NCBI GenBank assembly: GCA_963770895.1
Contig: CAVYRF010000002.1
Span: forward strand, 372,354 to 436,353
Direction of reading: 5' to 3'
DNA length: 64,000 nt
From: an uncultured Acidobacteriota bacterium
Lineage (GTDB): Bacteria; Acidobacteriota; Thermoanaerobaculia; Multivoradales; UBA5704
The stretch's first letter is position 1; the number at the start of each line of letters is the position of its first letter. Positions 1,623 to 43,210 of this stretch are shown in pieces. The position numbers and the translations under genes are program-made. The notes under the pieces were generated by a model. It did no database searches and was not told the DNA's origin. It saw nothing but the letters and a program-made list of their open reading frames with translations.

Positions 1623-2333
1623 TTATTGTCCGCTCTTCTGCTTCTGGTAGGTGCCGACCAGCTGGGCGCGGGCGACGACGTGGCCCTGGATGGCCTGCTC
1701 CAGGTGCTTCTTGTCGGGGGTGCCGAGGTCGGGGAGCGGGGTGTCCAGGGCGTACAGCTTGAAGAAGTAGCGGTGGCGGCCGACCGGCGGGCAGGGCGCG
1801 CCGTAGCCGGTGCGGCCCCAATCGTTGTTGCCCTGGCGCGTGCCGGCGAGCAGCGCTGCCGCCGCCACCCCTTCGGTCAGGCCGCGGGCGGTGGACGGCA
1901 GGTCGTACAGCACCCAATGCACCCAGGTGGTCTTGGGTGCCTGCGGATCGGGGGCGTCGGGATCGTCGACGATCAGGACCAGGCTGCGGGCGTTGCCCGG
2001 CACCCCGCTCCACGCCAGGGGCGGCGAGACTTCCGCGCTACCTCCCGCCACCTCGCAGCTGTAGCGGGCCGGGATCTCACCCTGGTTGGCGAACGCGGTC
2101 GAGGTCAGGATGAGAGGCACGGGGGCGCCTGGCGGTGCGGCAGCGCCGGCGGCTCCTGGCGGCGCGGCGGCACTGGCGGCGCCGGCGGAGATCGCCGCCG
2201 GCGCCAGGGCAAAGGCCAGGGCCAGGGCCAGGCGCAGGGCCGCCGGCACGATCCGGGCGCGGGCCGCAATGGCCACGATGGGCACGATGGGCGCGATGGG
2301 CGCGATCGGGGTCTGTCGAGTGTGGGTTCGCAC
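1623..2333 (-). CDS. YbhB/YbcL (PEBP, Raf-kinase-inhibitor-like) family protein with an N-terminal signal peptide. The start is uncertain (GTG ~2333 or ATG 2423).
   Basis: GEIPARYSCEVAGGSAEVSPPLAWSGVPGNARSLVLIVDDPDAPDP...WVHWVLYDLP...YGAPCPPVGRHRYFFKLYALD is the bacterial PEBP signature. A hydrophobic ALRLALALAFALAPAAISAGAASA segment lies upstream. Confidence 0.7.
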   Translation of the reverse strand: MRTHTRQTPIAPIAPIVPIVAIAARARIVPAALRLALALAFALAPAAISAGAASAAAPPGAAGAAAPPGAPVPLILTSTAFANQGEIPARYSCEVAGGSAEVSPPLAWSGVPGNARSLVLIVDDPDAPDPQAPKTTWVHWVLYDLPSTARGLTEGVAAAALLAGTRQGNNDWGRTGYGAPCPPVGRHRYFFKLYALDTPLPDLGTPDKKHLEQAIQGHVVARAQLVGTYQKQKSGQ

Positions 2334-2538
2334 GGGCCGATTGTATGCCGAAGTGACGGCCAGACAGGACGGCCGGGGGACCGGCGCGCGGCCGTGGTTC
2401 GTCCACGGCGCTACTTCTGACATCTCCCGAAGGGATTTGATAACGCGGCCGGGACAGCACTCCGCAACCGGTGATCGAATCACGTCCAAATAGCTGTAGC
2501 AAAGCGATTTGCAGGATTGATCAGATTTCTCGCGCAAC

Positions 2539-2567
2539 TTGACTTACGCCTCTTTAACGCCTTACAT
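2539..2567 (+). promoter_or_regulatory. candidate sigma70-like promoter for imuA: TTGACT-N17-TTACAT, with ATG only ~8 nt downstream (possibly leaderless)
   Basis: A lower-GC intergenic stretch at 2420..2575 contains TTGACT at 2539-2544 and TTACAT at 2562-2567. No LexA box could be identified by eye. Confidence 0.25.
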
Positions 2568-2574
2568 TCAGGCC

Positions 2575-3756
2575 ATGCCGAGCGCCTCCCAAGCCCTTGA
2601 ACGCGTGCGCGACGCCCTGGCGCGATCGTCCGCGCCGCTGCCCGCGCACGCGCCGCTGATCGCCCAGCTGCGCAGCGCCCGCGACTTCGGCCGGACGGCC
2701 GTTGAAGCGGCGGCCGAGGCGCCGGCCCCGCTTGCCACCACCGTCGCCGCCGTGGACGATCTACTGGCCGGCGGCCTGCCGCGCGGCCAGCTGGTCGAGC
2801 TGATCGGCGGGCGCTCCAGCGGCCGCTTCTCGACCGTCCTGGCCGCCCTGGCCGCCGCCACCGCGGCGGGCGAAGCGGCGGCGCTGGTCGATCTCGGCGA
2901 CGGGCTCGACCCGCAGGCCGCCATCACCCTGGGGGTGGACCTGCCGCGGCTCCTCTGGCTGCGCCCCTCCACCCTCAAGCAGGCCCTGGCCTGCGCCGAA
3001 ATCCTCATCGGCGGCGGCTTCTCCCTGGTGGCCCTCGAGCTCGGCCCTCCCCCGGTGCCCGGCGGCCGGGGGCTGGAGGCCGCCTGGCTGCGCCTGGCCC
3101 GCGCCGCCCAGGCCCACCACACCGCCCTGCTCATCGCCAGCCCCTACCGCGTCAGCGGCACCGCCGCCGCCGCCGTCCTGCAGGCTACCCGCTCCCGCGT
3201 CCTGTGGCACGGCCTCGCTCCTTGCCACCACACCCTTGCCGCGGAAACGGGTGCGCCGGCGGCAGGGATGCAATGGACGCCCCGGGACCAGGCAGCGGAC
3301 CGGGCCGCATCTCCCCTGCTTTCGGGACTGGCAGCCGCCGTGACGCTCGAAAAGCGCCGCAACCAGGCGCCCTCCACCGCCCAAACCGCCAGCCCCCTGA
3401 CGCTGTGGCTGCCCGAAGCCGCCGCCCTGCTCGATCCCCTGCCCTCGCACCGGCGCGCGGCACCGCCGGCAAGCGCCAGAGCGGCGATCGGCAAAGCCGC
3501 CAGACCCGCCGGGGTGGTCGCCGCCATGTCACCTTCGCCGGCGGGGCCGGCATCCCTGCCGGAGGAGGTGGCGGCGACACCGCCGATGCCGCTCCTGTCG
3601 CCGGCCGCGACGCGGTATCGGCGGCGGACGTCCGACCGGGTGTCGCCGCGCGCGGCGCTCGCCCAGCCGCCCGCGGCCCCGGCGGCGGCGGCCGGCGGCG
3701 ACCTTCCGGCGCCCCGCGCCGTCGCCTCGGGGTACCGGCGTGCTCGCCGGGGTTGA
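2575..3756 (+). CDS. imuA: ImuA-like protein of the imuA-imuB mutagenesis cassette (RecA/SulA fold), with a long Pro/Ala-rich C-terminal extension
   Basis: DDLLAGGLPRGQLVELIGGRSSGRFSTVLAALAAATAAGEAAALVDLGDGLDPQAAITLGVDLPRLLWLRP...LACAEILIGGGFSLVALEL. It sits immediately upstream of an ImuB-like gene, with ATG at 2575 (the tracker start is TTG 2539). About 150 residues of low-complexity tail follow. Confidence 0.6.
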   Translation: MPSASQALERVRDALARSSAPLPAHAPLIAQLRSARDFGRTAVEAAAEAPAPLATTVAAVDDLLAGGLPRGQLVELIGGRSSGRFSTVLAALAAATAAGEAAALVDLGDGLDPQAAITLGVDLPRLLWLRPSTLKQALACAEILIGGGFSLVALELGPPPVPGGRGLEAAWLRLARAAQAHHTALLIASPYRVSGTAAAAVLQATRSRVLWHGLAPCHHTLAAETGAPAAGMQWTPRDQAADRAASPLLSGLAAAVTLEKRRNQAPSTAQTASPLTLWLPEAAALLDPLPSHRRAAPPASARAAIGKAARPAGVVAAMSPSPAGPASLPEEVAATPPMPLLSPAATRYRRRTSDRVSPRAALAQPPAAPAAAAGGDLPAPRAVASGYRRARRG

Positions 3757-5566
3757 GGTTGAGGGTCGCGTCGTGGTTGCCTCCCGGCTTGCCTGCGTCG
3801 TCGTCTCGCTCTTCCCGCTGGCGGCCCGTCTGCGCAGCGAACCCGAGCTGACGCGGGAGGCGCTGGTCATCGTCGAAGGCAACGGCGGCGGCGCCGGCGT
3901 GGTCGCCGCTTCCCGTTTGGCGCGCCGCGCCGGCGTGCGGCCCGGCCTCAGCCTGACCCAGGCGCGGGCGCTCATCCCCAAGCTGGTGGCGCGGCCGCGC
4001 GACGTGGAATGCGAGCGCGCGGCCCAGGAAGCTCTGCTGGAAGCCGCCGACCGCTTCTCGCCGCGCGTCGAGGATGCCGGCGGCGGCATCGCCTACCTCG
4101 ACATCGACGGCATCGACCGCCGCTTCCGCCGCACCATCGCCGCCGCGTTGACCGCGTCCGCCGCGTCGACCGCGTCGGCGGCGCCGGCGGCGGCCGCCGA
4201 GCTGGAGCTGGGGCGCGCGCTGCTCGCCGCCACGGCGGCGGCAAGCCTGCCGGCCAAGGCCGGGATCGCCTCCAGCAAGCTGGCCGCCATGGTGGCCGCC
4301 GGCCTGGCGGACTCTCCCGGCATCGTCGCGGCGGGCCAGGAGGCGGCTTTTCTGGCGCCGCTGCCGCTCGATTGCCTGCTGCCCAGCCTGGAGCTGGTCC
4401 CCCTGCGCGGGTCCGCCGCCACCGGCCCCGAGGCCCCCGGCGGCGCCGGCATCCTGCAGATCGCGGCGACCCTGGAGCGCTGGGGGATTCGCACCATCGG
4501 CGATTTTGCCGGCCTGCCCGCGGCGCGCGTGAGCAGTCGCCTGGGGAGCCTCGGCCGTGCGCTGCATGCCACGGCCCGCGGCATCGATTCCCGTCCCCTG
4601 GTGCCCCGCCAGCCGCCGCCCGCCTTTCATGAAGGCATGGACCTGGAATGGCCGCTGGTGACGCTGGAGCCCTTTCTGTTCGTCGGCCGGCCGGCGCTCG
4701 AGCGGCTGTGCGGGCGCCTGGAGGGGCACGGACTCGCCTGTTCGCGGCTGGAGCTGGCGCTGCGCCTGGACCCGGAAGGGCACCAGCTGCGCACCATCGA
4801 CCTGCCCGCCCCGACCCGCGACGTCAAGACGCTCCTGACGCTGCTCCGCCTGGAGCTGGAAGCGCATCCGCCGGGGGCCCCGGTGGCCGGCTTCACCCTC
4901 GCCGCCCGCCCGGACCGCCCCCGCGAGGCCCAGCTGTCCCTGTACGGCCCGGCGGCGCTCTCACCGGACAAGCTGGCCGCCACCCTGGCGCGGCTGTTCG
5001 CCCTGTTGGGGCCGGACCGCATCGGCTCGCCGCGGCCGGTCGCGGGGCACCGCCCCGAGCGGCTGGCGCTGGTCGCCTACGCTCCCCCGCCGCCGCCCGA
5101 GGTGCGGCGCGACCCCAGGCGCACCACCGGCCGCGGCCTGCTGTCGATCCGGGTGGTGCGGCCGGCGCTCGCCATCGAAGTGATCGTGGAGGAGCCGCAG
5201 CAGCTCGGGGCGCCCGCACCCCAGCCGGCGCGACAACCCCAGCCGCTGCCGGCGGACGCGGCCGTGCCCGCACCCGAAGACGCGGCGGCGCCCGCGCCCG
5301 CGGCCGCGGACATGGGCACCGGCGAGCCCTGCATGCTGCCGCCCGTCGAGATCCTGCCCGTGGTCAGCGAGGACACCGCGGGGCGGCCGCGGATTGCCGG
5401 ACGGGTGAAGGTGGCCGCCGGCCCCTGGGGGCTGGAAGACGAATGGTGGACTCCCAACCCGACAGGCCGCGACTATTGGGACGTCGAGCTGGCCACAGGC
5501 GGCCTGTATCGCATCTTCCGCGACCGGGCCTCCAGCTGCTGGTACGCCGACGGGATCTACGACTGA
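3740..5566 (+). CDS. imuB: ImuB-like Y-family DNA-polymerase paralog (UmuC-fold, non-catalytic)
   Basis: The N-terminus LACVVVSLFPLAARLRSEPELTREALVIVEGNGGGAGVVAASRLARRAGVRPGLSLTQARALIPKLVARPRDVECERAAQEALLEAADRFSPRVEDAGGGIAYLDIDG is typical of ImuB. The gene overlaps the imuA 3' end. Confidence 0.7.
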   Translation: MLAGVEVEGRVVVASRLACVVVSLFPLAARLRSEPELTREALVIVEGNGGGAGVVAASRLARRAGVRPGLSLTQARALIPKLVARPRDVECERAAQEALLEAADRFSPRVEDAGGGIAYLDIDGIDRRFRRTIAAALTASAASTASAAPAAAAELELGRALLAATAAASLPAKAGIASSKLAAMVAAGLADSPGIVAAGQEAAFLAPLPLDCLLPSLELVPLRGSAATGPEAPGGAGILQIAATLERWGIRTIGDFAGLPAARVSSRLGSLGRALHATARGIDSRPLVPRQPPPAFHEGMDLEWPLVTLEPFLFVGRPALERLCGRLEGHGLACSRLELALRLDPEGHQLRTIDLPAPTRDVKTLLTLLRLELEAHPPGAPVAGFTLAARPDRPREAQLSLYGPAALSPDKLAATLARLFALLGPDRIGSPRPVAGHRPERLALVAYAPPPPPEVRRDPRRTTGRGLLSIRVVRPALAIEVIVEEPQQLGAPAPQPARQPQPLPADAAVPAPEDAAAPAPAAADMGTGEPCMLPPVEILPVVSEDTAGRPRIAGRVKVAAGPWGLEDEWWTPNPTGRDYWDVELATGGLYRIFRDRASSCWYADGIYD

Positions 5567-9797: not shown

Positions 9798-9816
9798 GGC
9801 ATCTCCTCTCTCGGGT

Positions 9817-11625
9817 CTATTTGCGGCGGTTGGCGGCCAGGGTGCGCTTGCGCAGGCGCACCGCCTCGGGGGTCACCTCGACCAGCTCGTCCTCGCGGAT
9901 GAACTCCAGCGCCTGCTCGAGGTTCATCAGCCGCGGCGGGATCAGGCGGATCATGTCGTCGGAGCCCGAGGCGCGCATGTTGGAGAGCTTCTTTTCCTTG
10001 GTGACGTTGACGTCCAGGTCGTTGCCGCGGGCGTGCTCGCCGATCACCATGCCCTCGTACACCTCGTCGCCCGGCGACAGGAAGAGCACGCCGCGCGGCT
10101 GCAGGTTCTCGATCGAATAGGCGGTGGCGCGCCCCTGGCGGTCGGCGACCAGGGCGCCGGTGGCGCGATGCTCGATGTCGCCCTGCCACGGCTCCCAGCC
10201 GTCGAACAGGTGGTTCATGATGCCGGTGCCGCGAGTTTCGGTCAGGAACTCGGCGCGGAAACCGATCAGGCCGCGGGACGGGACGCGAAACTCGATGCGC
10301 ACGCGGCCCGATCCGTGATTGCTCATCTTCATCATGCGGCCGCGGCGAGCGCCCATCTTCTGCGTCACCACGCCGATGAACTCTTCGGGACAATCGATCA
10401 CCAGCATCTCCATCGGCTCGTGCAGGCGCCCGTCCACCGTGCGGGTGATCGCCTGCGGCTTGCCGACCGACAGCTCGAAACCTTCCCGCCGCATCATTTC
10501 GATCAGGATCGCCAGCTGCAGCTCGCCGCGCCCCGAGACGCGGAAGGCGTCCGCCGTCTCGGTCATGTCGACGCGGATCGAAACGTTGATCAGGCGCTCG
10601 CGCTCCAGCCGTTCCTTCAGTTTGCGCGAGGTGACGTGCTTGCCCTCGCGGCCCGAAAACGGCGAGTCGTTGATCGACAGCACCATGGTGATGGTCGGCT
10701 CGTCCACCTGGATCGGCGGCAGCGGCCGGGGATTGTCGCGCTCCGACAGGGTTTCGCCGATCTCCATCTCCTCCAGGCCCGCCACCGCCACGATGTCGCC
10801 GGGACCGGCCTCGCTCACTTCGACGCGGCGCAGGCCGTCGTAGCCGTACAGCACGCTCACCTTGGCCGGCGCCGCCTGACCGTCGAGCCGGCAGAGCGCA
10901 ATCTCCTGCGCCTTGCGCAGGCGGCCGTTGAAAATGCGGCCGATGGCCAGCCGCCCCACGTAGTCGTCGTAGTCGAGGGTCGTCACCAGCATCTGCAGCG
11001 GCATGGCGGGATCGTAGGACGGCGCCGGCACCGTGCGCAGGATCTCTTCGAACAGCGGCGCCAGCGTTTCGTCCTCGCCCTGCGGCGTACGCCGGCAGGT
11101 GCCGGCGCGGGCGTTGCAATACAGCACGGGGAAATCGAGCTGCTCCTCGCCGGCTTCCAGGTCGATGAACAGATCGAAGACCTCGTTGAGCACCTCGGCG
11201 GGACGGGCGTCGGAGCGGTCGATCTTGTTGATCACGACGATCGGCGGCAGGTGCGCTTCGAGCGCCTTCTTGAGGACGAAGCGGGTCTGCGGCAGCGGCC
11301 CTTCCGACGCGTCCACCAGCAGCAGGACGCCATCCACCATCTTGAGCGTGCGCTCCACCTCGCCGCCGAAATCGGCGTGGCCCGGCGTGTCGACGATGTT
11401 GATGCGGGTGCCGTGATAGAGGATGGCGGTGTTCTTCGCCATGATCGTGATGCCCTTTTCGCGCTCCAGATCGATCGAATCCATCACCCGCTCCGCCACC
11501 GTCTGGTGCTCGCGGAAAATGCCGCTCTGCCACAACATGGCGTCCACCAAGGTGGTCTTTCCGTGATCGACGTGGGCGATGATCGCCAGGTTGCGTACGT
11601 CGTCGCGTCTCTCGATCCTCTGCAT
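9817..11625 (-). CDS. typA: translational GTPase TypA/BipA
   Basis: [20 protein letters not shown] (G1), [14 protein letters not shown] (G3), NKIDR (G4). The 602-aa length fits the BipA domain layout. Confidence 0.9.
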
Positions 11626-11739
11626 CAGGGCATGACCTCGTCAGGCATATGAATGGGTGCGTGCGGACCGGCGGGAAACCGTGCGGCCCCAGGGGGACGG
11701 GGAGGATACCACAGGGGCTGGTGGCGATAGGATCGCCGG

Positions 11740-13254
11740 ATGCGTGGCGCCGCCGCCTTCCTGCTCCTTCTTGCCCTGGCCGGCAGCGGGCCGGCGCCCG
11801 CGGCGCCACCGGCATCCCCGGCGGCGCCCGCGCCTGCCGCCGGTGCGGCACCCGCCGGGCCGGCGCCGCCGCAGGCCGGCGACGAACCGCTGGTGCGCGG
11901 GCAGCTGATCCAGACGGTGCACGCCGCCGGTCAGCCCGGCGAAACCTACGCGCTGTACCTGCCGGCCGCCTACAGCGCCGACCGGGCCTGGCCGATCGTC
12001 TACCTGCTCGACCCGCGCGGGCGGGGCGACCGCGCGGCGCGGCTGTTCCAGGCCGGCGCCGAGCGCTTCGGCTACTGCCTGGCCAGCTCCTACAACTCGC
12101 TGAGCGACGGGCCGCTGGCGCCGACCGTCGCGGCGATGCAGGCGATGTGGAACGACACCCACCGGCGCCTGCGCCTGGACGACCGCCGCCTCTACGCCGC
12201 CGGGTTTTCCGGCACCGTCCGCGCCGCGGTCCTGCTCGGGCTGCGCGCGCCGGGCACCTTCGCGGCCATCATCGGCGCCGCCGCCGGCTGGCCCGAAGGG
12301 CAGCCGCCGACGCGGGACACGGCGCTGCCGTTTTTCGGCACCGTCGGCAATCACGACTTCAACTACGACGAGATGATGCTGCTGGAGGAGCGCCTGGACG
12401 CGCTCGGCTCGCCGCACCACTTCGAGGTCTTCGACGGCACCCATCAATGGATGCCGGCCGAGCTGGCGACCGCCGCCCTGGCCTGGGTGACGCTCGGCGC
12501 CCTGCGCGCCGGCAGCCACCCCGCCGACCCGGCGCTGGTCGCCGCGCTGTTCGCGCCGCGCCTGGCCGCGGCGCGCGCCCTTGACGGCGGGCACCTCGAC
12601 CAGGCGGCACGCGCCTGGCGCCAGCTGGCGGACGACTTTCAGGGTCTGCTCCCCGCCGCCGACATGGACCCGGTGGCGCACCGCGCCGCCGAGCTGGCGG
12701 CGATGCCCGCCGTCGTCGCCGCGGCCAGGCGGCGCGCCGAACGCGTGCGCGGCGAGCAGCTCGCCACCGCGGCGGCGCTCCATACCCTGGCGGCGGCCCT
12801 GGACGACGCGCCCAGCGAGGCGACGTCGCTGCCGCGCCTGCTCGCCGATCTGCACCTGGGCGAGCTGCAGGCGCGGGCTCGCTCGAAGACCGATCCCGAC
12901 GACAGCCTGGCGGCGCAGCGGCAGCTCAACTCCCTGCTGGTGCAGACGTCGTTCTACCTGCCGCGCCAATATGCCGCGCACCAGCAGGACGACCGCGCCC
13001 TGCTGGCGCTCGCGGTCGCCGCCGAGATCGACCCGCACGACGCCGACACCTGGTACCAGAGCGCGGCAGCCAACGCCCGCCTGGGGCGCCGCCGCCAGGC
13101 GCTCAAGATGCTGGAGCGGGCGGCGGACGCCGGCTTCGGCGACGCCGACCGGCTGGCCAACGACGCCGACTTTGCACCGCTGCGGGGCGATGCCGACTTT
13201 GCGCGCCAGCTGGCCCGCGTGCGCGCGGCGGCGGCGGCGCACGGCCCCGCCTGA
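11740..13254 (+). CDS. secreted esterase / alpha-beta hydrolase (PHB-depolymerase-type esterase family) with a C-terminal helical TPR-like region
   Basis: A signal peptide MRGAAAFLLLLALAGSG is followed by YALYLPAAYSADRAWPIVYLLDPRGRG...RRLYAAGFSGTV (nucleophile elbow GFSG). The C-terminal half is Ala/Leu-rich and helical. Confidence 0.55.
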   Translation: MRGAAAFLLLLALAGSGPAPAAPPASPAAPAPAAGAAPAGPAPPQAGDEPLVRGQLIQTVHAAGQPGETYALYLPAAYSADRAWPIVYLLDPRGRGDRAARLFQAGAERFGYCLASSYNSLSDGPLAPTVAAMQAMWNDTHRRLRLDDRRLYAAGFSGTVRAAVLLGLRAPGTFAAIIGAAAGWPEGQPPTRDTALPFFGTVGNHDFNYDEMMLLEERLDALGSPHHFEVFDGTHQWMPAELATAALAWVTLGALRAGSHPADPALVAALFAPRLAAARALDGGHLDQAARAWRQLADDFQGLLPAADMDPVAHRAAELAAMPAVVAAARRRAERVRGEQLATAAALHTLAAALDDAPSEATSLPRLLADLHLGELQARARSKTDPDDSLAAQRQLNSLLVQTSFYLPRQYAAHQQDDRALLALAVAAEIDPHDADTWYQSAAANARLGRRRQALKMLERAADAGFGDADRLANDADFAPLRGDADFARQLARVRAAAAAHGPA

Positions 13255-13356
13255 GAGTCCTCTGGTCGTCCGCGCGCCTGGCGCGGCTCGCGGTCCGGCC
13301 GCGGGGCCGCGGAGCCGCGCATGGATCTTGCTTCCAGCGGGAGGGCTCGTTCGCCC

Positions 13357-14844
13357 ATGACAACGCGAAACATCATCTGCTGCCTGCTCCTGTGCGCCGC
13401 CGCCGGCCTGGCGACGGCGCCTGCCCAGGCCGAGGAAACCCTGTCCTACGGCCGTTTTGGCGTGGTGACCCTGTACCACGACACACCCCACCCGCGGCAC
13501 GTGGTGCTGTTCTTTTCCGGCGACGGCGGCTGGAACCTGGGCGTGGTCGATATGGCACGTACCCTGGCGAAAATGGACGCCCTGGTCGTCGGCATCAACC
13601 TGCCGCGCTACCTGAAGGCCTTCGACGCGGCGGGCGGCAGCTGCTCCTACCCCGCCAGCGACGTCGAGCTGCTCAGCAAGTACGTCCAGAAAAAGCTCGG
13701 CTTCCCCACCTATACCCCGCCGGTCCTGGTCGGCTACTCGTCGGGCGCCACCCTGGTCTACGCCCTGCTGGTGGAGGCGCCGCCCAACACCTTCGCGGGC
13801 GCGATCAGCATGGGCTTCTGCCCCGACCTGCCGCTCAAGAAGCCGATGTGCGCCGGCCACGGCCTCACCTGGGGCCCCGGCCCCAAGGGCAAGGGCGTCA
13901 GCTTCAAGCCCACCGCCACCCTGGAGCAGCCGTGGATCGCCTTCCAGGGGACGATCGACCAGGTCTGCTCGCCCCAGGACGTCGCGGCCTACGTGCGCCA
14001 GGTGAAAAACGGCGAAGCGGTGATGCTGCCCAAGGTCGGCCACGGCTTTTCGGTGACCGCCAACTGGGAGCCGCAGTTCAAGGCGGCGTTCCTCAAGCTG
14101 ACGGCGGCCGCTGCCACCCCGGCTGCGCCGCCCCCACCACCGGCCGCACCGGCGGCACCTCCCGCGGCCGCCGCGGGCGCCAGGCCGGGCCTGCCCGCGG
14201 CCGCGCCGCCGCCGGTGGGCGACCTGCCGCTGATCGAGATGCCCGCCAAGACGCCGGCCGGCAACATGCTGGCGATCATCGTCTCGGGTGACGGCGGCTG
14301 GGCCGGCATCGACCGCGAAGTGGGCACCGACCTGAGCGCCAAGGGCATACCGGTCGTGGGCCTCAACTCGCTGCAGTATTTCTGGAGCGCCAAAAACCCC
14401 GACGTCGCCGCCGCCGACCTGCAGCGCATCGCGCGCCACTACCTGGCGGTATGGGGCCGCGAGCAGCTGCTGCTGGTCGGCTACTCGCTCGGCGCCGACG
14501 TGCTGCCCTTCATGGTGGACCGGCTGCCGGCAGACCTGCAGAACCGCATCCGCCTGATCGCGCTGCTCGGGCCGAGCCTGCGCACCAGCTTCGAGTTCCA
14601 CGTCGGCGACTGGCTGGGCGCCGGCGACGGCGGCGACCTGCCGGTGCTGCCCGAAGTCGGCAAGCTGCGCGGCCGGCCGCTGCTCTGCCTCTACGGCCAG
14701 GACGAAACCGACAGCCTGTGCACCCGCATCGGCGCCCTGGGCAAGGCCGTCGCCTTCCAGGGCTCCCATCACTTCAACGGCGCCTATTCGTCGCTGGCCG
14801 AGCGCATCCTGCACGAAGCGCAAACCGCGGGCGGCGCCAAATGA
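13357..14844 (+). CDS. AcvB/VirJ family protein (N-terminal hydrolase-like domain plus C-terminal VirJ domain), with a signal peptide
   Basis: MTTRNIICCLLLCAAAGLATAPAQA is the signal peptide. It is followed by VVLFFSGDGGW..., then IIVSGDGGWAGIDREVG...VGYSLGADVLPF...GSHHF, the VirJ/AcvB signature. Confidence 0.7.
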   Translation: MTTRNIICCLLLCAAAGLATAPAQAEETLSYGRFGVVTLYHDTPHPRHVVLFFSGDGGWNLGVVDMARTLAKMDALVVGINLPRYLKAFDAAGGSCSYPASDVELLSKYVQKKLGFPTYTPPVLVGYSSGATLVYALLVEAPPNTFAGAISMGFCPDLPLKKPMCAGHGLTWGPGPKGKGVSFKPTATLEQPWIAFQGTIDQVCSPQDVAAYVRQVKNGEAVMLPKVGHGFSVTANWEPQFKAAFLKLTAAAATPAAPPPPPAAPAAPPAAAAGARPGLPAAAPPPVGDLPLIEMPAKTPAGNMLAIIVSGDGGWAGIDREVGTDLSAKGIPVVGLNSLQYFWSAKNPDVAAADLQRIARHYLAVWGREQLLLVGYSLGADVLPFMVDRLPADLQNRIRLIALLGPSLRTSFEFHVGDWLGAGDGGDLPVLPEVGKLRGRPLLCLYGQDETDSLCTRIGALGKAVAFQGSHHFNGAYSSLAERILHEAQTAGGAK

Positions 14845-14855
14845 GGAGGACCAGG

Positions 14856-17800
14856 ATGGGGTCGACCCGACGGAGCTTCGGCGGCACCTTCACCGCGGCG
14901 CTCGTGGCGAGCGCGGCGCTGGCAGCGGTTGCGGCGGGAGTAGCCGGCGCGGCGACTCCGGGGACGCCGGCGGCCCCGGCGGTGGCGGCAGCCCCGACGC
15001 CCAAGGCGGCGCACGCCGCGCCGGCCCCGCCGCCCGCCGCGGCCGTCGAGCATCAGACCTACGGCCGCTTCGGCCAGGTTTCGATCTACCGCCACGGCAG
15101 CCAGCCGGCAGGCATCGTGGTGCTGGTGTCGGACGACGAAGGCTGGGACGGCCGCGCCGACGAGATGGCGCGCGACCTCGAATCGGTCAACACCCTGGTC
15201 ATCGGCCTCGACCTGCCCTACTACGAGCGCCGCTCCGAACGCCTCACCCAGGACTGCTCCTACCCCGCCGGCGACTTCGAGATGCTGTCGAAGCTGGTGC
15301 AAAAGAAGCTCGACCTGCCGACCTATACGCCCCCCATCGTCGCCGGCATCGGCAGCGGCGCCACCCTCGCCTATGGCGCCCTGGCCCAGGCGCCCAGCGG
15401 CACCTTCGCCGGCGCCATCAGCCTGGGCTTCTGCCCGCGGCTCGAAGAGGCGCACCCGCTCTGCACCGGCCGCGGCCTGGTCAGCAAGGCCCTGCCGGGA
15501 GGCGAATCCTTCCGCCTCGAACCGATCGCCAGCGTCGATCAGCCCTGGCTGCTGGTGCCGCCCCTGCCGGCGCCAGGCGAAACCGCGCAATGCGGCGACC
15601 CCACCACTCCCGAAGCCTTCGCCGCCAAGGTGAAGGGCGCCGTGGTGATCGCGCCGCCCAAGAAGAACGGCAAGAAGGAAGCGGCGGCCGACCTGCGCGC
15701 CGGCTCGGGCCTCAAGCAGGCCTTCCTGCGGGCGGTGAACACCACCGACCTGTCGGTCCCGCCGGCGACGCCGGTGCGCCGGAAGGTGGCCGACCTCCCC
15801 ATCCTGGAGCTGCCGGTGCCGGGCACCACCGGCGACACCCTGGCGGTCGTCGTCTCGGGCGACGGCGGCTGGACGGGGCTCGATCGCGACGTCGCCAGCG
15901 AGCTCGCCACCCAGGGGTTTCCGGTCGTCGGCATCAACTCGCTGCAGTACTTCTGGACGCCGCGCACCCCCGAAAGCGCCGCCGCCGACCTGGCCCGCAT
16001 CCTGCGCGCCTACATGCCGGCCTGGAACCGCAAGGACTTCATGCTGGTCGGCTACTCGCTGGGCGCCGAAGTCCTGCCCTTCATGGCCGCGCGGCTGCCC
16101 GCCGACCTGCAATCCAAGCTCAAGCTGGTGGCGATGATCGGCCCCACCCGCACCACCAGCTTCAAGTTCGAGCTCAGCGAATGGCTGGGCCATGGCGGCG
16201 GCGAAAATCGCCCCGTCCTGCCGGAAGTCATCAAGCTCAAAGGCAAGGCCGCGGTCGCCTGCATCTTCGGCGCCTCCGAGAAGGCCACCAGCCTCTGCCC
16301 CATCCTCGGCAACGCCGGCACGCCCATCGCCCTCAAGGGCGCCCACTACCTGGGCAACAACCCGCAGGCGGTCACCTACCAGATCGTGCACGCCATGCCT
16401 GCCGCCGCGCCGCCACCCCCGCCGCCGGCCAAGCCCGACGAAGGCACGACCAAAAAGCCCCAGCACCCGGCCGCGCCGCCGCCGGGAAGCGCGCCGGCGC
16501 CGGCCACCGGCAACGGCTCAGGCTCGGGTTCAGGCTCGGGCTCGCAAGCTCCGACGGTGACCATCGGGAGCGCGCCGGCGAACCGCATCGCCCTGCTGGC
16601 CGGCTTCGGCGCCGGGTTGGGCGCCGGTTTCGCCAGCCCCGGCCCCGCCCCCGGCGGCAAGGCCGTGCCGGCGGCGGCGCCATCGCCCGGCCCCGCCCCG
16701 GGTGGCGCCGAGGAGACCACGCAATACGGCCGCTTCGGCACCCTCCACCTGGTGCGCCAGCACCCGCACCCCGGCCAGGTCGTGCTGCTCTTCTCCGGCG
16801 AGCAGGGCTGGGACGCCACCGCCGCGGCCATGGCGCAGGGCTTTGCGGCGCGCGACTTCCTGGCCGTGGGCATCGACACCGCCCACTACCTGGGAAAGGT
16901 CGCGGCGCAGCACGACAGCTGCGCCTACACCGCGGGCAGCCTGGAAAACCTCAGCAAGGTGGTGCAGAAGCGGCTCGCCTTCCCGCGCTACGTCCATCCC
17001 GTCGTGGCCGGCTTCGGCGGCGGCGCCGCGCTCGCCTACGGCGCGCTCGCCCAGGCGCCGCCCAATACCTTCCAGGGCGGCATCGGCCTGGATTTCTGCC
17101 CCCTGCTGCCGGCCGGGCAGACCCTCTGTCCAGGCCACGGCCTGGCCGAGCGCAAGACGGCCAAGGGGGCGTTCGAACTGCTCCCCGGAAAGGGCCTGTT
17201 GCAGCCATGGATCGCCCTGCAGCCGGCGGCCACCAATCCGTCCTGCCCCGCCGCCACCGGCACCGCCATCGCGGCGCTGGCCACCGCGGCGCCCGGAGGC
17301 GCGGCGCTCACCCTGGCCGCGGCGGACCGCACCCTCAGCCAGCCGGCGCAGTGGCTAGGCGACCTGCGCCAGGCGATCGACCGCCTGCTGACGCGCGCCG
17401 CCCTGCCCACCGCCACCGCCGGCGTGCACGAGGTCGCAGGCTCGCCCGCTCTCCCCGACCTGCCGGTCATCGAGATGACCGGCGACACCGCCGCCGGCAA
17501 GGGTGCCGATCCCGCCGGCGCAGGCAGCGGCAACGCAACGGGCGGCGGCGCAAGCGGCGGCGGCGCGTCCGCCAAGCCGCTGGTCGTGGTGCTCTCCGGC
17601 GACGGCGGCTGGACCGGCGTCGATCGCGAAGTCGGCAAGATCCTGGCAGGCCGCGACGGCATGCCCGTCGTCGGCCTCGATTCGCTCAGCTACTTCTGGA
17701 ACGGCCGCACCCCCGCCGCCGCGGCGGCGGACCTGGCGCGCGTCCTGCGCCACTACCTGGCGGCCTGGAAGCGCGACCAGGTGGTGCTCGTCGGCTACTC

Positions 17801-18164
17801 GCTGGGCGCCGACGTGCTCCCCTTCCTGACCAGCCGCCTGCCCGCCGACCTGCTCGCCAAGGTGCGCCTGGTCGCCCTGCTGGGTCCCAGCCACACCACG
17901 CCCTTTGACATCCGGGTCAAGGACGACAAAGCCACCGAGCTGCCCGTCCTGCCCGAGATCGCCAAGCTGAGCGGCCGGCCCCTGCTCTGCCTGGGCGGCG
18001 AAGGCGAAGCCGACAGCCTCTGCCCAGAAATCGCCCAGCGCGGCCTGGGCCAGGCCGTCGAGCTGCGCGGCTCGCACGCCTTCGACGGCGACTACGCCAC
18101 CCTCGCCTCCCACATCGCCCGCGCCGTCCACGCCCCACCCCACGCCGGCCGCACCGGGGCCTGA
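14856..18164 (+). CDS. fused double AcvB/VirJ protein of 1102 aa (two complete N-domain plus VirJ-domain units in tandem)
   Basis: An RBS GAGGAGG lies 6 nt before ATG 14856. The motif pair (V/L)(V/L)SDDEGW or FSGEQGW, then VVSGDGGWTG...VGYSLGA(E/D)VLPF...G(A/S)H(Y/A), occurs twice. The units are separated by P/A/G-rich linkers (GSGSGSGS). Confidence 0.7.
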   Translation: MGSTRRSFGGTFTAALVASAALAAVAAGVAGAATPGTPAAPAVAAAPTPKAAHAAPAPPPAAAVEHQTYGRFGQVSIYRHGSQPAGIVVLVSDDEGWDGRADEMARDLESVNTLVIGLDLPYYERRSERLTQDCSYPAGDFEMLSKLVQKKLDLPTYTPPIVAGIGSGATLAYGALAQAPSGTFAGAISLGFCPRLEEAHPLCTGRGLVSKALPGGESFRLEPIASVDQPWLLVPPLPAPGETAQCGDPTTPEAFAAKVKGAVVIAPPKKNGKKEAAADLRAGSGLKQAFLRAVNTTDLSVPPATPVRRKVADLPILELPVPGTTGDTLAVVVSGDGGWTGLDRDVASELATQGFPVVGINSLQYFWTPRTPESAAADLARILRAYMPAWNRKDFMLVGYSLGAEVLPFMAARLPADLQSKLKLVAMIGPTRTTSFKFELSEWLGHGGGENRPVLPEVIKLKGKAAVACIFGASEKATSLCPILGNAGTPIALKGAHYLGNNPQAVTYQIVHAMPAAAPPPPPPAKPDEGTTKKPQHPAAPPPGSAPAPATGNGSGSGSGSGSQAPTVTIGSAPANRIALLAGFGAGLGAGFASPGPAPGGKAVPAAAPSPGPAPGGAEETTQYGRFGTLHLVRQHPHPGQVVLLFSGEQGWDATAAAMAQGFAARDFLAVGIDTAHYLGKVAAQHDSCAYTAGSLENLSKVVQKRLAFPRYVHPVVAGFGGGAALAYGALAQAPPNTFQGGIGLDFCPLLPAGQTLCPGHGLAERKTAKGAFELLPGKGLLQPWIALQPAATNPSCPAATGTAIAALATAAPGGAALTLAAADRTLSQPAQWLGDLRQAIDRLLTRAALPTATAGVHEVAGSPALPDLPVIEMTGDTAAGKGADPAGAGSGNATGGGASGGGASAKPLVVVLSGDGGWTGVDREVGKILAGRDGMPVVGLDSLSYFWNGRTPAAAAADLARVLRHYLAAWKRDQVVLVGYSLGADVLPFLTSRLPADLLAKVRLVALLGPSHTTPFDIRVKDDKATELPVLPEIAKLSGRPLLCLGGEGEADSLCPEIAQRGLGQAVELRGSHAFDGDYATLASHIARAVHAPPHAGRTGA

Positions 18165-18168
18165 CGGC

Positions 18169-19092
18169 ATGGCGGGCAGCCGCCGCACCCTGCTCGCCCT
18201 GCACGGGCTCTTCTACGCGGTCTTCGTGCCGCGGGCACTCCTGCGGTGGGGCCCGCCCCTCTGGCGGGCAGCCACCGGAGACCGGCCCGCCGCGGGGGTC
18301 GCTGGCCAAGGCAGCGCCCTGCCGCAGAGCAGCGCGTCGACGCCGGGCGCCCTCACCTCGACCGCAGCGAGGCCCGGCGCCGGTGCCGCCGCCGCCGGAG
18401 ACGCCAGCTCCCAAGCCGCCCATTGGGTGCCACTCGCCCTGCACGGCGTGGCGATGGGGCTGCTCTACCTGAGCATCCTCCGCGCTCGCGGGCCACAGCC
18501 GGAGCGCCGCCGCAACCCATCGCCAGCAGCGGGATCGGCTGCCAGGGAAGGGGAGCGGAAGGGCACGGCCGACCGCGAGCAGTCAGCGCTCAGCCAGGGA
18601 GCGAGTGGAAGCGGCAGGGGCCACGCCGCCATTCACCAAACCGCAGACAGCGGCCACCGGGACGCAGAGTGGCGGGCGGCAAGCGCCTGGCGCCTGAGCG
18701 CAGTGCGCAGGGAAGAACACGGCGAGCGCCTGGTCATTTTGCGCCAGGCCGCAGGCAGCGCAACCGTCCTGGCGAGCGCAGGCCTGGCGGCATGGACGCT
18801 GGCGGTGTTTCGCTCCTGGCGGCTGCTGCCGCGGATCGAAGACCAGCACGAACTGTGCACCGCCGGCCCGTTCCGCTGGGTGCGCCATCCGATCTACCTG
18901 GCCATGGACCTGCTTGCGGCCGGCACCTGGCTGTGGCTGCCCACCGCGCCAGTGGCGGCCTCGGCGGTGCTGGTGGCAGTGGCCGGCGATGTGCGAGGCC
19001 GCGGCGAAGAACGGCAGCTGGCCGCCGCCTTCGGGAGCGCTTACGATCGCTACCGGCGGCGCGTGCGGCGCTTCGTGCCTGGTCTGTATTGA
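18169..19092 (+). CDS. isoprenylcysteine carboxyl methyltransferase / phospholipid methyltransferase (ICMT/PEMT) family membrane protein
   Basis: C-terminal HELCTAGPFRWVRHPIYLAMDLL...EERQLAAAFGSAYDRYRRRVRRFVP matches the ICMT/PEMT motif block. The start overlaps the stop of the VirJ gene. Confidence 0.6.
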   Translation: MAGSRRTLLALHGLFYAVFVPRALLRWGPPLWRAATGDRPAAGVAGQGSALPQSSASTPGALTSTAARPGAGAAAAGDASSQAAHWVPLALHGVAMGLLYLSILRARGPQPERRRNPSPAAGSAAREGERKGTADREQSALSQGASGSGRGHAAIHQTADSGHRDAEWRAASAWRLSAVRREEHGERLVILRQAAGSATVLASAGLAAWTLAVFRSWRLLPRIEDQHELCTAGPFRWVRHPIYLAMDLLAAGTWLWLPTAPVAASAVLVAVAGDVRGRGEERQLAAAFGSAYDRYRRRVRRFVPGLY

Positions 19093-29583: not shown

Positions 29584-29589
29584 GGCGCT

Positions 29590-30621
29590 CTACTTCCAGA
29601 GGAACGAAGGATAACCGTCGAGGTCGCCGCGCAATGTTCGCGCGAGGAGAGCGGCTTGCAGGTGCGGCAGCAGGCCGAGAGTCGTCTTTTCCCCCAGGAA
29701 GGGATGCACGATCTCTTCGTTCTTTCGCTTCTGATATGCCACGAGAACGGCCTTGCGGGTGTCGCTGTCCATGGCGACCCCTCCCGATTCTCCCTGGCGG
29801 AAGCCGGCGGGACGGACCTGGTTGAGATTGACCAGCGATAGTGCCAGACGGTCCGCCAGATAGGCGCGCATCTCTTCCATGAGATCGAGCGCAAGGCCTG
29901 GCCGGCCCGGCCTGTCGCGATGGAGAAACCCGACAGCAGGATCGAGCCCAACGGCTTCGAGCGCGGCCGTGAAGTCGTGCCGCAGCAGTGTGTAGATGAA
30001 CGAGAGAAGAGCGTTCATGTTATCGAGAGGAGGTCGCCGGCTCCGGTCGTGGAGAAAGAACGAGTCCTTCTGCTGGACCAAGAGAACGTCGAAGGCCTCG
30101 AAATAGGCGCGAGCCGCACTTCCCTCAAGACCACGCAGACCGTCTACCGTCAGGTCGGGCGTGAGAGATCGCAGGTGCTGAGCCAGCCTGCTTGCGGCGC
30201 TCCGCAGAGCGTCAGCACCTGGATGCTCCGGCCGGTCGCGGAGAGCTCGCAGGAGAACGGTGCGGCTGTTGGCTAGCTTTGCAGCAAGGATGGCGCGGAC
30301 GATGGCAGCGGAGCCTACCGGATCGTCGGCGCGGCGATACTGTTCGCGCCGCAGCAGCACGTTACCGGACACGGGACCCTGGAGACGAGCGAGGAATCTG
30401 CCGCTCTCGGTGAGGAACGAGACGGTGACGCCGCGCTCACCGCAGAGCCCAAGAAGATATGGACTGAAACCGATCTGCCCGAAGCAGACGATGCCGCCCA
30501 GAGTGTGGATCGGCACCCGCATGCGAGTCTCCTGGTCGACCCGCACCGCGACCGCCTCGCCGTCCTTCGCCAGGTAAGCCCCGGCCGTGGTCACAAAGAG
30601 TGTGTTCTGATGTCTCCTCAC
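29590..30621 (-). CDS. cas1: CRISPR-associated integrase Cas1 (type I-C), GTG start at 30621
   Basis: VRRHQNTLFVTTAGAYLAKDGEAVAVRVDQ...GNVLLRREQY... . The GTG start overlaps the cas4 stop in a GTGA. The tracker ORF 29590..30750 extends 5' into cas4. Confidence 0.85.
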   Translation of the reverse strand: MRRHQNTLFVTTAGAYLAKDGEAVAVRVDQETRMRVPIHTLGGIVCFGQIGFSPYLLGLCGERGVTVSFLTESGRFLARLQGPVSGNVLLRREQYRRADDPVGSAAIVRAILAAKLANSRTVLLRALRDRPEHPGADALRSAASRLAQHLRSLTPDLTVDGLRGLEGSAARAYFEAFDVLLVQQKDSFFLHDRSRRPPLDNMNALLSFIYTLLRHDFTAALEAVGLDPAVGFLHRDRPGRPGLALDLMEEMRAYLADRLALSLVNLNQVRPAGFRQGESGGVAMDSDTRKAVLVAYQKRKNEEIVHPFLGEKTTLGLLPHLQAALLARTLRGDLDGYPSFLWK

Positions 30622-31328
30622 GGAGCGACTCCTTCGTCTTGCCCCTCTGGAGATGCCGCGATCTGCCGGAGGAAGCGTGCGAGGTAGCGCTGGGCGGAGC
30701 TGGCCGGTGCCCCCGGAAGGCAGACGTCGAGCAACGAACAGCGATCGCACTTCGGCTCGCGGACAGGCATGGGAGTGATACCGCGCCCTACAAGCTCGTG
30801 AAAACGTGCCGCCGCGGCTTCGGTGAGCTGGCGAAGACCGTGGTCGAAGAGCACGTCCATTCGTCGGCGCGGCTGACCGTAGAACAGGGCGCCCGCTGGA
30901 ACCTCAATCGCCAGCATCTCCTCCAAACAGATTCCTTGGGCGCAGAGCTGAACCTCGTCGGCTCGGTGGGACTTGGGTCGGCCGCGCTTGTACTCGATCG
31001 GGAATGGTCGCCAGAGTCCCTGCAGACCGGGGAGCGGGGCCGCGGCTTGGACTCCCCCTTCGCCGGGACCGAACCGCCGCAGTTCCACCACGTCGGCCTT
31101 GCCCGAAAGCCCGAGACGCGCGCTGCGGAGAGGGAGGCTGCGAACGACCCGGAGATCGCCACGGGACTCGTCCGCTCCCCGGTCCGCGCGCTCGTGGAGG
31201 TGCGTTCCTTCCACCGTCAGGGCGTTGTCCACCCAAATCTGTTCGAGGTGGATCAGGGCAGCCTGCCGCTCGCAGAAGAGCAGGTGCTGCAGGCCGGAGA
31301 GCGGGAGCAAATCGTCTTCGGTGAACAC
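30618..31328 (-). CDS. cas4: Cas4 (RecB-like nuclease with a C-terminal Fe-S Cys cluster)
   Basis: LSGLQHLLFCERQAALIHLEQ carries the N-terminal Cys. The C-terminal ...CDRCSLLDVC has three Cys. The gene sits between cas7 and cas1. Confidence 0.85.
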   Translation of the reverse strand: MFTEDDLLPLSGLQHLLFCERQAALIHLEQIWVDNALTVEGTHLHERADRGADESRGDLRVVRSLPLRSARLGLSGKADVVELRRFGPGEGGVQAAAPLPGLQGLWRPFPIEYKRGRPKSHRADEVQLCAQGICLEEMLAIEVPAGALFYGQPRRRMDVLFDHGLRQLTEAAAARFHELVGRGITPMPVREPKCDRCSLLDVCLPGAPASSAQRYLARFLRQIAASPEGQDEGVAP

Positions 31329-31332
31329 GTGC

Positions 31333-32283
31333 TTACCGCAACTCGAGCAGTGTCACTCCCACCGGCACACGGTCGCGATGGATGGTCACCGCGTAGTCGG
31401 CAAATGCGCGGGGCGCTTCGATTTCGGGCTTTTTCTTTACCTCAACGAGCTCGAACAGCTCGTGAGCCGGAGCGCAGCCAAGCATGGCCTGCCGGCGCCG
31501 CTGCGCAGTATCGGTGTCCGTGCCGTCGTGGCGGAAGACGACGAGCGGCCGGTGAACGCTCATCAGCCCCTTGCTCGCCGAGCGGTCGTGCTCATACATG
31601 TTGAGCAGGGCCTCCCAAAGCAGGGCTAGGTCGGCGTCGGAGAACCCGGTTTCCTGGGCCAGGTGCGCGCTGATGAAGCCGCGGCCCACGAACAGGCCGT
31701 AGGGGATGAGTGCCTTGCGGCCCATCGTGCGGAGCTTGTCCTCGGGCTGCTCGGCCTCCCAGCGGGCGATGTCCGCCGAAGAGCTCGCGCCCTTGACGTT
31801 CTCGGCCACCGCCATGCGAGTGATCGAAAGGTCCAGCGGCAGGACCGGGTCCACCGAACGGGCAAAGGGGATCTGCACCGGTCCGCGCACCTGGCCGGCG
31901 TTGGCGCCGGTGCTCATCACCGCGCCGAAAGCTCGCACGTCGAAAAAGTTCTGGCACATCCAATGCTTCGCCGCATCGACCCTGGCCTTGGAGGAGCCCT
32001 TCTTGTCCGCGGCGAGACCGCCTGTTTCCTCGTGAGCGCGGGCGATCGGGCGGTTGAGGTTCGTCGCGTGTTCGATGAAGATGGCATCGGGCATCTGATT
32101 TCCCCGCGCGATCTGCACATAGTTACGGATGCGACGCTTGATCGCCACGTCGGACACCAGGCCGATCATCGTCTCCGGGTCGAGACGCGGGGCGTTGCCG
32201 GCGTCGGGATCGCCGTTGGGGTTACCGTTGACGCAGTCGAAAAGAAAGAGGAATTCGTAGCGATTTGCGATCGGCTCAGACAT
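31333..32283 (-). CDS. cas7: Cas7 (Csd2), type I-C
   Basis: [45 protein letters not shown] is the Csd2 signature. Confidence 0.9.
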
Positions 32284-34045: not shown

Positions 34046-34770
34046 CAGACGCTCTCCCCCATTTTCAGCACGTCCGGACTGCCGTAGTCGGGCACCTGGA
34101 CCACTCCGCCGCGAAGCTTCGCCAGGAACAGGCTCACTGCGGGAGCGTCGTGCGCCGTGCCCGGGCGGGATAGATCGAAGACGTCGTACAGCATCAATCC
34201 CAGGTCCTCGTCCATGACGATCGGACGCGCTGTGTCCCCGGCCTCCACAAGCCTGAAGAAGGCCGGCATCTCGCGACAGCCGAAGTACGGCTGAAAGAAG
34301 CACTTCCCCTTCTCCGCCCGGCGGCGGAACTGCGCCTCGAGGGCGGTCTGGCGGCCCTCATGACCGGGCCAGGCAAGGATGTCCGCCTGCAAGCGGTAGC
34401 GCACGTCACGCAGCGCCATCGTCTGCCGCTGGGTGCGCCCCTTCTCATCGGTACCGAGCAGATCCCGGTCGCCGTCCGCCCACAGCGGCTCTGGCTTCCG
34501 CTTGCCGTCTATCCAATCAAGGACGGCGTTGACATTGACCTTGTCCTTCACCTCATTGCGCCGCAGGGCGATGTAGGCCGGAACGGCGAGCACCTCGATC
34601 ACCCGCACTGCCCAACGGAATTCCGCCGGCTTGGCGTAGATGGCGTCGAAGATCCCCCGCGCGGCTGAAGGGGTGATTACAGGATAACTGAAACGCTCCA
34701 CCTTCAGCTCCGGACGACTGAAGCACGCGAACTCACCCCAGACCTCGAGCATCTGTCGAGTCGGCGGCAT
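34045..34770 (-). CDS. cas5: Cas5d (type I-C pre-crRNA endoribonuclease)
   Basis: EVWGEFACFSRPELKVERFSYPVITPSAARGIFDAIYAKPAEFRW is the Cas5d signature. Confidence 0.9.
   Translation of the reverse strand: MPPTRQMLEVWGEFACFSRPELKVERFSYPVITPSAARGIFDAIYAKPAEFRWAVRVIEVLAVPAYIALRRNEVKDKVNVNAVLDWIDGKRKPEPLWADGDRDLLGTDEKGRTQRQTMALRDVRYRLQADILAWPGHEGRQTALEAQFRRRAEKGKCFFQPYFGCREMPAFFRLVEAGDTARPIVMDEDLGLMLYDVFDLSRPGTAHDAPAVSLFLAKLRGGVVQVPDYGSPDVLKMGESV

Positions 34771-37380: not shown

Positions 37381-43210
<5,830 letters not shown>

Follow-up and report, generated by a model that had tools for sequence, protein, structure and literature searches.

We analyzed a 64,000 bp window (the whole stretch of DNA under study, positions 372,354-436,353 of contig CAVYRF010000002.1 in assembly GCA_963770895.1) from an uncultured Acidobacteriota bacterium of the class Thermoanaerobaculia. 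Four co-directional genes on the forward strand fill window positions 11740-19092, with intergenic gaps of 66, 11, and 4 nt: a putative secreted esterase with a tetratricopeptide repeat (TPR) domain (11740-13254; 504 amino acids, aa), a single AcvB/VirJ-type protein (unit A; 13321-14844; 507 aa), a fusion of two further AcvB/VirJ-type units (units B and C; 14856-18164; 1102 aa), and an integral-membrane methyltransferase of the ICMT/PEMT family, dependent on S-adenosylmethionine (SAM; 18169-19092; 307 aa). The 504-, 1102-, and 307-aa products are exact matches to called proteins of a public 5.83-Mb contig; the public call of the 507-aa gene probably begins at the alternative start 13357, giving a protein of 495 aa. 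The GC content of the region is about 73%, and a promoter and terminator scan of it gave nothing usable. The four genes probably form one operon, which is restricted to a single Thermoanaerobaculia clade.

In AcvB, which is exported, an inactive N-terminal alpha/beta-hydrolase domain precedes a catalytic C-terminal one (PMC13197417). A preliminary description of the locus, made from the DNA letters, had assigned the three units to the AcvB/VirJ family, and this was borne out: Pfam VirJ (PF06057; gathering score 22 bits) matches the 507-aa protein with E = 2.8e-68 and the 1102-aa protein with E = 3.5e-113, the latter in two strong stretches, and phmmer aligns the 507-aa protein with Agrobacterium tumefaciens AcvB (PDB 9XHM, chain 9xhm_A) across both domains (E = 1.3e-59). 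As also described, a unit of the type SGDGGW...VGYSLGA...GSHxF occurs three times, two of them fused within 1102 aa by GSGSGS and Pro-rich linkers; we found the motif triplet (SGDGGW, GYSLGA, and G[SA]Hxx) in all three, with nucleophiles Ser389 in the single protein and Ser401 and Ser982 in the double protein. The two-domain makeup of the units had been missed: each unit is a pair of N- and C-terminal alpha/beta-hydrolase domains, so that the locus holds six such domains in total, four of which have both Ser and His.

The unit A N-domain (nt 13429-14115) carries the motifs SGDGGW, GYSSGA (Ser140), DQVC (Asp213), and VGHGF (His241), and its C-domain (nt 14212-14841) contains Ser389, His483, and a Trp-Leu loop. 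The AlphaFold2 (AF2) model of unit A (pLDDT 84.4) has two alpha/beta domains, and its N-domain aligns with domain D1 of Brucella VirJ (PDB 9RC4) at a Foldseek TM-score of 0.80 on the target. Unit B, the first half of the fusion (14856-16415), begins with a signal or anchor segment, followed by a degenerate N-domain (nt 15042-15755; GIGSG, without the His) and a catalytic C-domain (nt 15783-16415; Ser401 in GYSLGAE, His497 in GAHYL) that keeps the Trp-Leu loop. A low-complexity linker (16416-16706; aa 521-617), with a Pro-rich part including PPPPPP, then GSGSGSGSGS, and an Ala/Gly-rich stretch, joins it to unit C; the linker differs in length among orthologues. Unit C (16707-18164) has a degenerate N-domain (nt 16707-17435; GFGGG) and a catalytic C-domain (nt 17520-18161; Ser982 in GYSLGAD, His1074 in GSHAF), in which the Trp-Leu loop is deleted and a Pro occupies the position of AcvB Asp370. 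Hydrophobic N-terminal segments with charged n-regions were seen in the units, by eye and from hydropathy; Cys pairs are invariant in every domain, and there is an LSAC lipobox in a related protein (P0030). A Tat signal, suspected from TRRSF in a window protein, was dropped, since it is not conserved in orthologues. The domain architecture shows that A, B, and C are three paralogous two-domain AcvB proteins, predicted to be exported, with B and C fused.

Active-site residues, membrane loop, and N-domains

From an alignment of 73 C-domains with AcvB, we extracted the residues at positions that have been assigned roles (AcvB numbering): Asp271 and Asp340 bind the alpha-amino group, Ser336 and His433 act in catalysis, and Asp370 contacts the lysine epsilon-amine, being replaced by Ser/Thr in PA0919 and PP_1201, homologues that hydrolyze alanyl-phosphatidylglycerol (Ala-PG) (PMC13197417). 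The preliminary description had proposed aligning the three units to see how far their catalytic Ser, His, and Asp diverge. Asp271, Ser336, Asp/Glu340, and His433 are conserved in 73 of the 73 C-domains, including all three window units (Asp271 without exception; A and C have Asp and B has Glu at position 340). The Asp370 that marks the subgroup specific for lysyl-phosphatidylglycerol (Lys-PG; AcvB, Agrobacterium VirJ, and AtvA) is absent from all three units: A and B have Ser there and C has Pro, each conserved across orthologues. Because this ligand of the lysine epsilon-amine is replaced, the substrates are probably not Lys-PG; the conserved Asp271 and Asp/Glu340 favor a free alpha-amino group beside the scissile ester.

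The units differ further in the membrane loop (Trp378-Leu379 in AcvB), which is retained in A and in the B units of this clade; in a distant clade of double proteins (P0029-P0032), unit B has Met-Arg or Met-Gln instead of Trp-Leu. In unit C the loop is deleted in 34 of 34 sequences, leaving a 4-residue gap with polar flanks. Overall, the substrate-contact positions 340, 368, 370, 413, and 434, together with the membrane loop, carry fixed changes specific to each paralogue. The preliminary description had suggested an expanded or altered substrate range, and changes that are paralogue-specific and conserved among orthologues fit this suggestion.

PMC13135905 treats the AcvB N-domain as an inactive remnant and acknowledges that its role is an open question. 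In B and C, the N-domains (GIGSG and GFGGG) are degenerate like that of AcvB (GIGKG). Unit A, in contrast, keeps the full Asp/Ser/Asp/His set in the four N-domain motifs given above, and in the AF2 model these residues follow strands at the positions canonical for a hydrolase triad. The intact set is found in 118 of 120 Thermoanaerobaculia homologues of the unit A type, and in 47 of 145 family representatives (P0079-P0346).

Relatives, rarity, and the mprF gene

A word-indexed search found 31 other double proteins (955-1386 aa), whose sources are named Thermoanaerobaculia bacterium. Their domain order, N- and C-domain of B and then N- and C-domain of C, is fixed in all 32 double proteins, and the orthologues are 50-76% identical to the window protein, while units A, B, and C of the window are only 39-44% identical to one another. 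The gene order typA (reverse strand), unit A, B-C fusion, asnC-like gene (reverse strand), and M20 gene, with or without an esterase-TPR gene before unit A and a methyltransferase gene after the fusion, recurs in 16 loci. Five loci (L010 and L022-L025) have a simpler order of typA, esterase-TPR, unit A, asnC-like, and M20, which makes the esterase-TPR gene and unit A the older core, with the B-C fusion and the methyltransferase inserted later; this older pair, like the intact unit A N-domain and the loss of the loop in unit C, had been missed in the preliminary description. In a neighbor-joining tree of C-domains (without support values), the A, B, and C units of the expanded genomes cluster together inside the single units of Thermoanaerobaculia. 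We propose that a gene for an AcvB-type aminoacyl-phosphatidylglycerol hydrolase was duplicated in tandem to give the locus.

Could the three units simply repeat the reaction of a single AcvB, the expansion serving only dosage or differential regulation? One catalytic core is common to all of them, and in Agrobacterium, too, Lys-PG is hydrolyzed by two enzymes, AcvB and VirJ (PMC13135905). We consider such redundancy improbable, given paralogues that have diverged to 39-44% identity yet show 60-76% identity each among orthologues, with fixed changes at the five substrate-contact positions and in the membrane loop, and given that B and C are fused in the same order in 32 of 32 proteins.

A sister strain has the same split layout as the window, with separate genes of 1098 and 311 aa. 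Compared with this strain, the ratio of nonsynonymous to synonymous substitution rates (dN/dS) is 0.22 for the esterase gene, 0.16 for unit A, 0.18 for the B-C fusion, and 0.37, the highest of the four, for the methyltransferase gene. All four genes are under purifying selection, and values of 0.16-0.37 rule out pseudogenes or a frameshift artefact. That the fusion or the split methyltransferase gene is a product of mis-assembly or frameshift, or that the genes are decaying, is thus extremely unlikely: the reading frames are open, the sister strain repeats the layout, and the 32 double proteins are independent, come from many samples, and share one domain order. One related nanopore contig (L004) does have broken gene calls over the first half of the double gene, and we considered this in the artefact's favor; the artefact is nonetheless effectively refuted. 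We likewise rejected a separate architecture of a single unit with a methyltransferase domain (P0033 and P0034, 681-684 aa), since the upstream half is present in L004 and is broken by frameshifts.

Two other loci extend the range of architectures. In L005 a fourth, separate AcvB-like unit (12865-14373) follows the double gene, with a degenerate N-domain, an altered membrane loop, and no methyltransferase. L070, from an unrelated uncultured bacterium, encodes a 1032-aa double AcvB protein (9799-12897) whose halves are each other's closest relatives; here the double form evolved independently. A canonical MprF-AcvB pair (L082) is encoded in the same metagenome-assembled genome (MAG) as well.

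Among 1.84 billion cluster representatives, a full HMMER scan returned 2716 clusters of the family, and only two of the best 150 are double units, although a double protein should outscore any single one. Among 185,579 species-representative genomes, about 10 contain doubles (nine MAGs of Thermoanaerobaculia/Acidobacteriota, and L070). The multiplication and fusion are therefore as unusual as first suggested. It had been allowed that fused doubles might turn out to be common and already characterized; they are common inside their own clade (more than 30 protein clusters), and so not unique to this genome, but they are uncharacterized. The three-copy, fused, methyltransferase-coupled layout is rare, confined to one clade, and uncharacterized.

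The single AcvB gene usually stands beside mprF, as the preliminary description had stated: the two genes are direct neighbors in 45 of about 70 loci from other phyla that have one AcvB gene. Its observation that the window lacks mprF was also confirmed, since tblastn with an MprF query gave nothing better than E = 1 and Pfam searches of the large open reading frames (ORFs) gave no MprF; the same query detects MprF of other phyla at 25-48% identity. In one Thermoanaerobaculia MAG (L021), a gene of the unit A type (61% identical) is immediately followed by a full MprF gene, and other fusions within the AcvB family (P0037, P0101, and P0170) join the hydrolase to parts of MprF. Both ties link the AcvB family, and the Thermoanaerobaculia lineage, to aminoacyl-phosphatidylglycerol chemistry. 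Separately, in L025 a 192-aa ORF (15246-15824), about 2 kb downstream of the simpler locus of typA, esterase-TPR, unit A, asnC-like, and M20 genes, aligns with no more than the C-terminal half of the MprF synthase domain (LPG_synthase_C, 3e-19), and may be a fragment or else a stand-alone synthase domain with a frameshift.

Methyltransferase, esterase, and neighboring genes

The 307-aa protein scores just above the gathering scores of two Pfam families, PEMT (29.9 bits, cutoff 25) and ICMT (29.3 bits, cutoff 24), and a profile built from 34 homologues matches the ICMT of Methanosarcina acetivorans (Ma-ICMT; PDB 4A2N) over its full length (E = 9.4e-25). The SAM-binding motifs RHPxY, EE, and FG..Y are invariant or nearly so among the homologues; in the window they form a conserved catalytic core, RHPIY...EER...FG..Y..Y, at nt 18724-19089, and Foldseek superposes the core of the AF2 model on 4A2N at an rmsd of 2.2 A over 114 columns. 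The equivalog profiles of NCBIfam gave scores far under their cutoffs, both for isoprenylcysteine O-methyltransferase (NF040696; 48.2 bits, cutoff 160) and for the methanethiol methyltransferase MddA (21 bits, cutoff 270), so that only membership in the superfamily is supported. A hydropathy scan predicts five transmembrane helices, which places the N-terminus outside if the SAM site is cytoplasmic; this predicted topology is compatible with a preceding periplasmic domain. The window protein also has two long low-complexity or charged loop insertions (about aa 30-85 and 105-185), which are common to a 93%-identical relative and missing in most homologues (190-220 aa).

The preliminary description had placed a membrane methyltransferase at the flank of the cluster. 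The family match agrees with this, but the link was understated: in 14 of the 31 relatives, the ICMT domain lies at the extreme C-terminus of the double protein itself. In others it is a separate adjacent gene (L006, L007, and L092) or is missing (L003 and L005). We found no paper in the literature that names both VirJ and isoprenylcysteine carboxyl methyltransferase. OlsG, an ornithine-lipid N-methyltransferase with an alpha/beta-hydrolase neighbor, was weighed as a precedent, with no claim of membership.

The coupling suggests the main rival to an aminoacyl-lipid role for the units, namely a methyl-ester cycle unrelated to MprF chemistry. The ICMT-type enzyme would write a carboxyl methyl ester on a membrane lipid or lipopeptide at the cytoplasmic face, and after flipping, the AcvB-type esterases would erase it in the periplasm, the loop-less unit C being the best candidate eraser. 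The 14 of 31 relatives in which ICMT is joined to the double protein imply a single pathway, carboxyl methyl esters are the characteristic product of ICMT-family enzymes (to which the Ma-ICMT match points), AcvB cleaves a simple alkyl ester, lysine ethyl ester (PMC13197417), and no mprF lies nearby. The profiles, however, do not distinguish O- from N-methylation, since PEMT and ICMT score equally; Asp271 and Asp/Glu340 favor a free alpha-amino group, which is not found in typical ICMT substrates; the membrane would lie between writer and eraser; and some orthologous loci have no ICMT at all. On balance we regard this cycle as unlikely.

At its N-terminus the 504-aa protein bears a signal-like segment; an alpha/beta-hydrolase-like region with a GFSGT nucleophile elbow (about aa 130-190) follows, and a TPR end domain (aa 438-489; NCBIfam TPR_END_plus, 8.3e-12) lies C-terminal. 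No Pfam family matches it at E <= 0.01. Its NCBIfam match to polyhydroxybutyrate/polyhydroxyalkanoate (PHB/PHA) depolymerases is weak (20 bits, cutoff 150), and PDB 8daj, an esterase of the PHB-depolymerase family, aligns in two short stretches that include AAGFSGT (E = 1.4e-5). With the elbow and this resemblance behind it, the secreted esterase of the preliminary description is the weakest assignment of the locus. Orthologues that are 45-58% identical lie directly upstream of unit A in ten loci (L006, L007, L010, L015, L018, L020, and L022-L025).

A conserved partner that combines a PHB-depolymerase-like esterase with a protein-interaction domain would also suit a different, non-lipid role, in which the units act on other envelope esters (O-acyl or aminoacyl groups of cell-wall or outer-membrane polymers) or serve as periplasmic secretion scaffolds, a function suggested for Brucella VirJ. 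In their degenerate state, the N-domains of B and C do resemble the inactive D1 of that protein, unit C has no membrane-insertion loop, and the linkage to mprF is missing. We find this role doubtful: the catalytic and alpha-amino-binding residues are kept in all C-domains under purifying selection, which a pure scaffold would not need; neither the window nor the related loci contain type IV secretion genes; and the fusion partners in the wider family are parts of MprF.

The locus is bounded by genes that are conserved by synteny. Upstream lies a divergent typA/bipA GTPase gene (9817-11625, reverse strand; identified from its ORF translation), 81-92% identical in related loci. At the downstream edge, a convergent gene (19127-19477, reverse strand) encodes a stand-alone AsnC/Lrp ligand-binding (RAM) domain protein of 116 aa (Pfam AsnC_trans_reg, 2.5e-15), which is syntenic at 76-90% identity in L001, L003, L004, L006, L010, L012, L013, L016-L020, and L022-L025. 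It is followed by an M20 family metallopeptidase/deacylase gene (19599-20927, forward strand; 442 aa; Pfam Peptidase_M20, 2.6e-19).

Further out, the window contains a PEBP-family gene and a pair of imuA-like (RecA fragment) and imuB-like (IMS) genes (1623-5566), the pair being syntenic with L003, L005, and L010. A type I-C CRISPR-Cas locus (24885-43200) includes cas1 (29590-30750), Csd1/cas8c (32276-34303), and cas3 (34868-37159), all on the reverse strand, and is flanked by two very large arrays, one of about 64 repeats from 24885 (32-nt repeat GTTTCAATCCACGCCCCCGCGCAGGGGGCGAC) and one of about 86, from 37483, whose repeat differs slightly; array read-through accounts for many mechanical ORFs across these stretches. 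A cluster at 43601-49531 contains genes for a cyanophycin synthetase (43601-46528, reverse strand), an S51 cyanophycinase-like peptidase (46525-47967, reverse strand), and a Mur-ligase-like protein (47660-49531, forward strand). Finally, a 1623-aa ORF (58844-63715) joins ABC-2-type membrane domains to an M1 peptidase domain.

Proposed function and known systems

Aminoacylated phospholipids determine how the membrane is charged and how well cells tolerate acid and resist cationic peptides. To our knowledge, AcvB-type hydrolases are the only known erasers of these lipids, and we know of studied AcvB-type enzymes only as single-unit, MprF-linked proteins from Proteobacteria. Most likely, the units of this locus form a specialized array of aminoacyl-lipid esterases, as their conserved active-site residues suggest. 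For the locus as a whole we tentatively favor, at slightly less than even confidence, a clade-specific operon of duplicated aminoacyl-ester hydrolases acting on lipid head groups. The units would sit at the periplasmic face of the inner membrane and hydrolyze alpha-aminoacyl esters on lipid head groups, probably of small or neutral aminoacyl-phosphatidylglycerols (of the Ala-PG type) or related aminoacyl lipids rather than of Lys-PG; an MprF-type synthase, with its gene at another site in the genome, would make them. Paralogues A, B, and C may have shared out the substrates among them; for unit A, two active centers are probable. LpiA anchors AcvB in Agrobacterium (PMC13197417); by analogy, unit C, which lacks a membrane-insertion loop of its own, might be kept at the membrane by its neighbors, unit B and ICMT (as a domain or as a separate protein). 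The methyltransferase, whose SAM site would face the cytoplasm, could modify the same lipids or something derived from them.

Several observations weigh against this aminoacyl-lipid model. In none of the 16 double-unit loci does mprF occur within 10 kb, and the window has none either. ICMT is missing at L003 and L005, and close relatives of it also stand alone in unrelated contexts, so that the methyltransferase is an accessory, with a role that may be unrelated to catalysis; the loop of unit C is deleted also where ICMT is absent, which makes the idea that a tether replaces the loop correlative. In addition, position 370 is only one of the specificity determinants, and export was judged by eye and from hydropathy.

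We also consider, as a speculative and rather unlikely extension, that the covalent or operonic coupling of AcvB-type hydrolases to ICMT represents an undescribed cycle of lipid head-group modification in Acidobacteriota, independent of an adjacent MprF, which could involve methylated aminoacyl lipids, or else a carboxyl-methyl ester written inside and erased outside, and in which a two-centered unit A would show the former activity of the AcvB N-domain. The locus is of interest chiefly because of the fusion to a methyltransferase, the unit C without its loop, and the unit A N-domain with its full catalytic set. Natural paralogues with differing pocket residues, with or without the membrane loop, are useful for mapping specificity; homologues with a full N-domain catalytic set are a lead on the role of that domain in AcvB; and fusion to a membrane methyltransferase hints at undescribed lipid chemistry in the abundant, uncultured Thermoanaerobaculia of soil. 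If the units merely share the turnover of Ala-PG or Lys-PG, the locus would be an ordinary lineage-specific expansion of a gene family.

Among known systems, the closest comparison is the Lys-PG hydrolase AcvB of A. tumefaciens (PDB 9XHM and 9XHN), encoded in the lpiA-acvB operon. Both are two-domain alpha/beta-hydrolase proteins with SGDGGW (Asp271), GYSxGA(D) (Ser336, Asp340), and GxHxF (His433) in the C-domain; units A and B share its Trp-Leu loop, and B and C its degenerate N-domain. The window differs in having three units (two of them fused), Ser, Ser, and Pro in place of Asp370, a unit C without the loop, an intact N-domain in unit A, and an ICMT-type methyltransferase as membrane partner instead of an adjacent lpiA/mprF. 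PA0919 of Pseudomonas aeruginosa and PP_1201 of P. putida, compared here as they are described in PMC13197417, have Ser/Thr at position 370 and keep Asp271 and Asp340, as in units A and B, but are single-copy genes adjoining an Ala-PG synthase gene. D1 of Brucella abortus VirJ (9RC4) has the fold of the unit A N-domain and, like the N-domains of B and C, no triad, whereas the unit A N-domain keeps the triad residues, and the window lacks a type IV secretion context.

The methyltransferase resembles Ma-ICMT (4A2N) and Ste14 in its five transmembrane helices and its RHPxY and EE...FG..Y core; it differs from them in scoring under the equivalog cutoff, in its two loop insertions, and in its linkage or fusion to esterases predicted to be periplasmic. 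The fusions of MprF parts to AcvB (P0037, P0101, and P0170) offer a parallel, since in them too one polypeptide combines an AcvB-type hydrolase with a lipid-modifying enzyme of the integral-membrane kind; there, however, the synthase/flippase is N-terminal to one AcvB unit, while in the clade described here ICMT is C-terminal to two.

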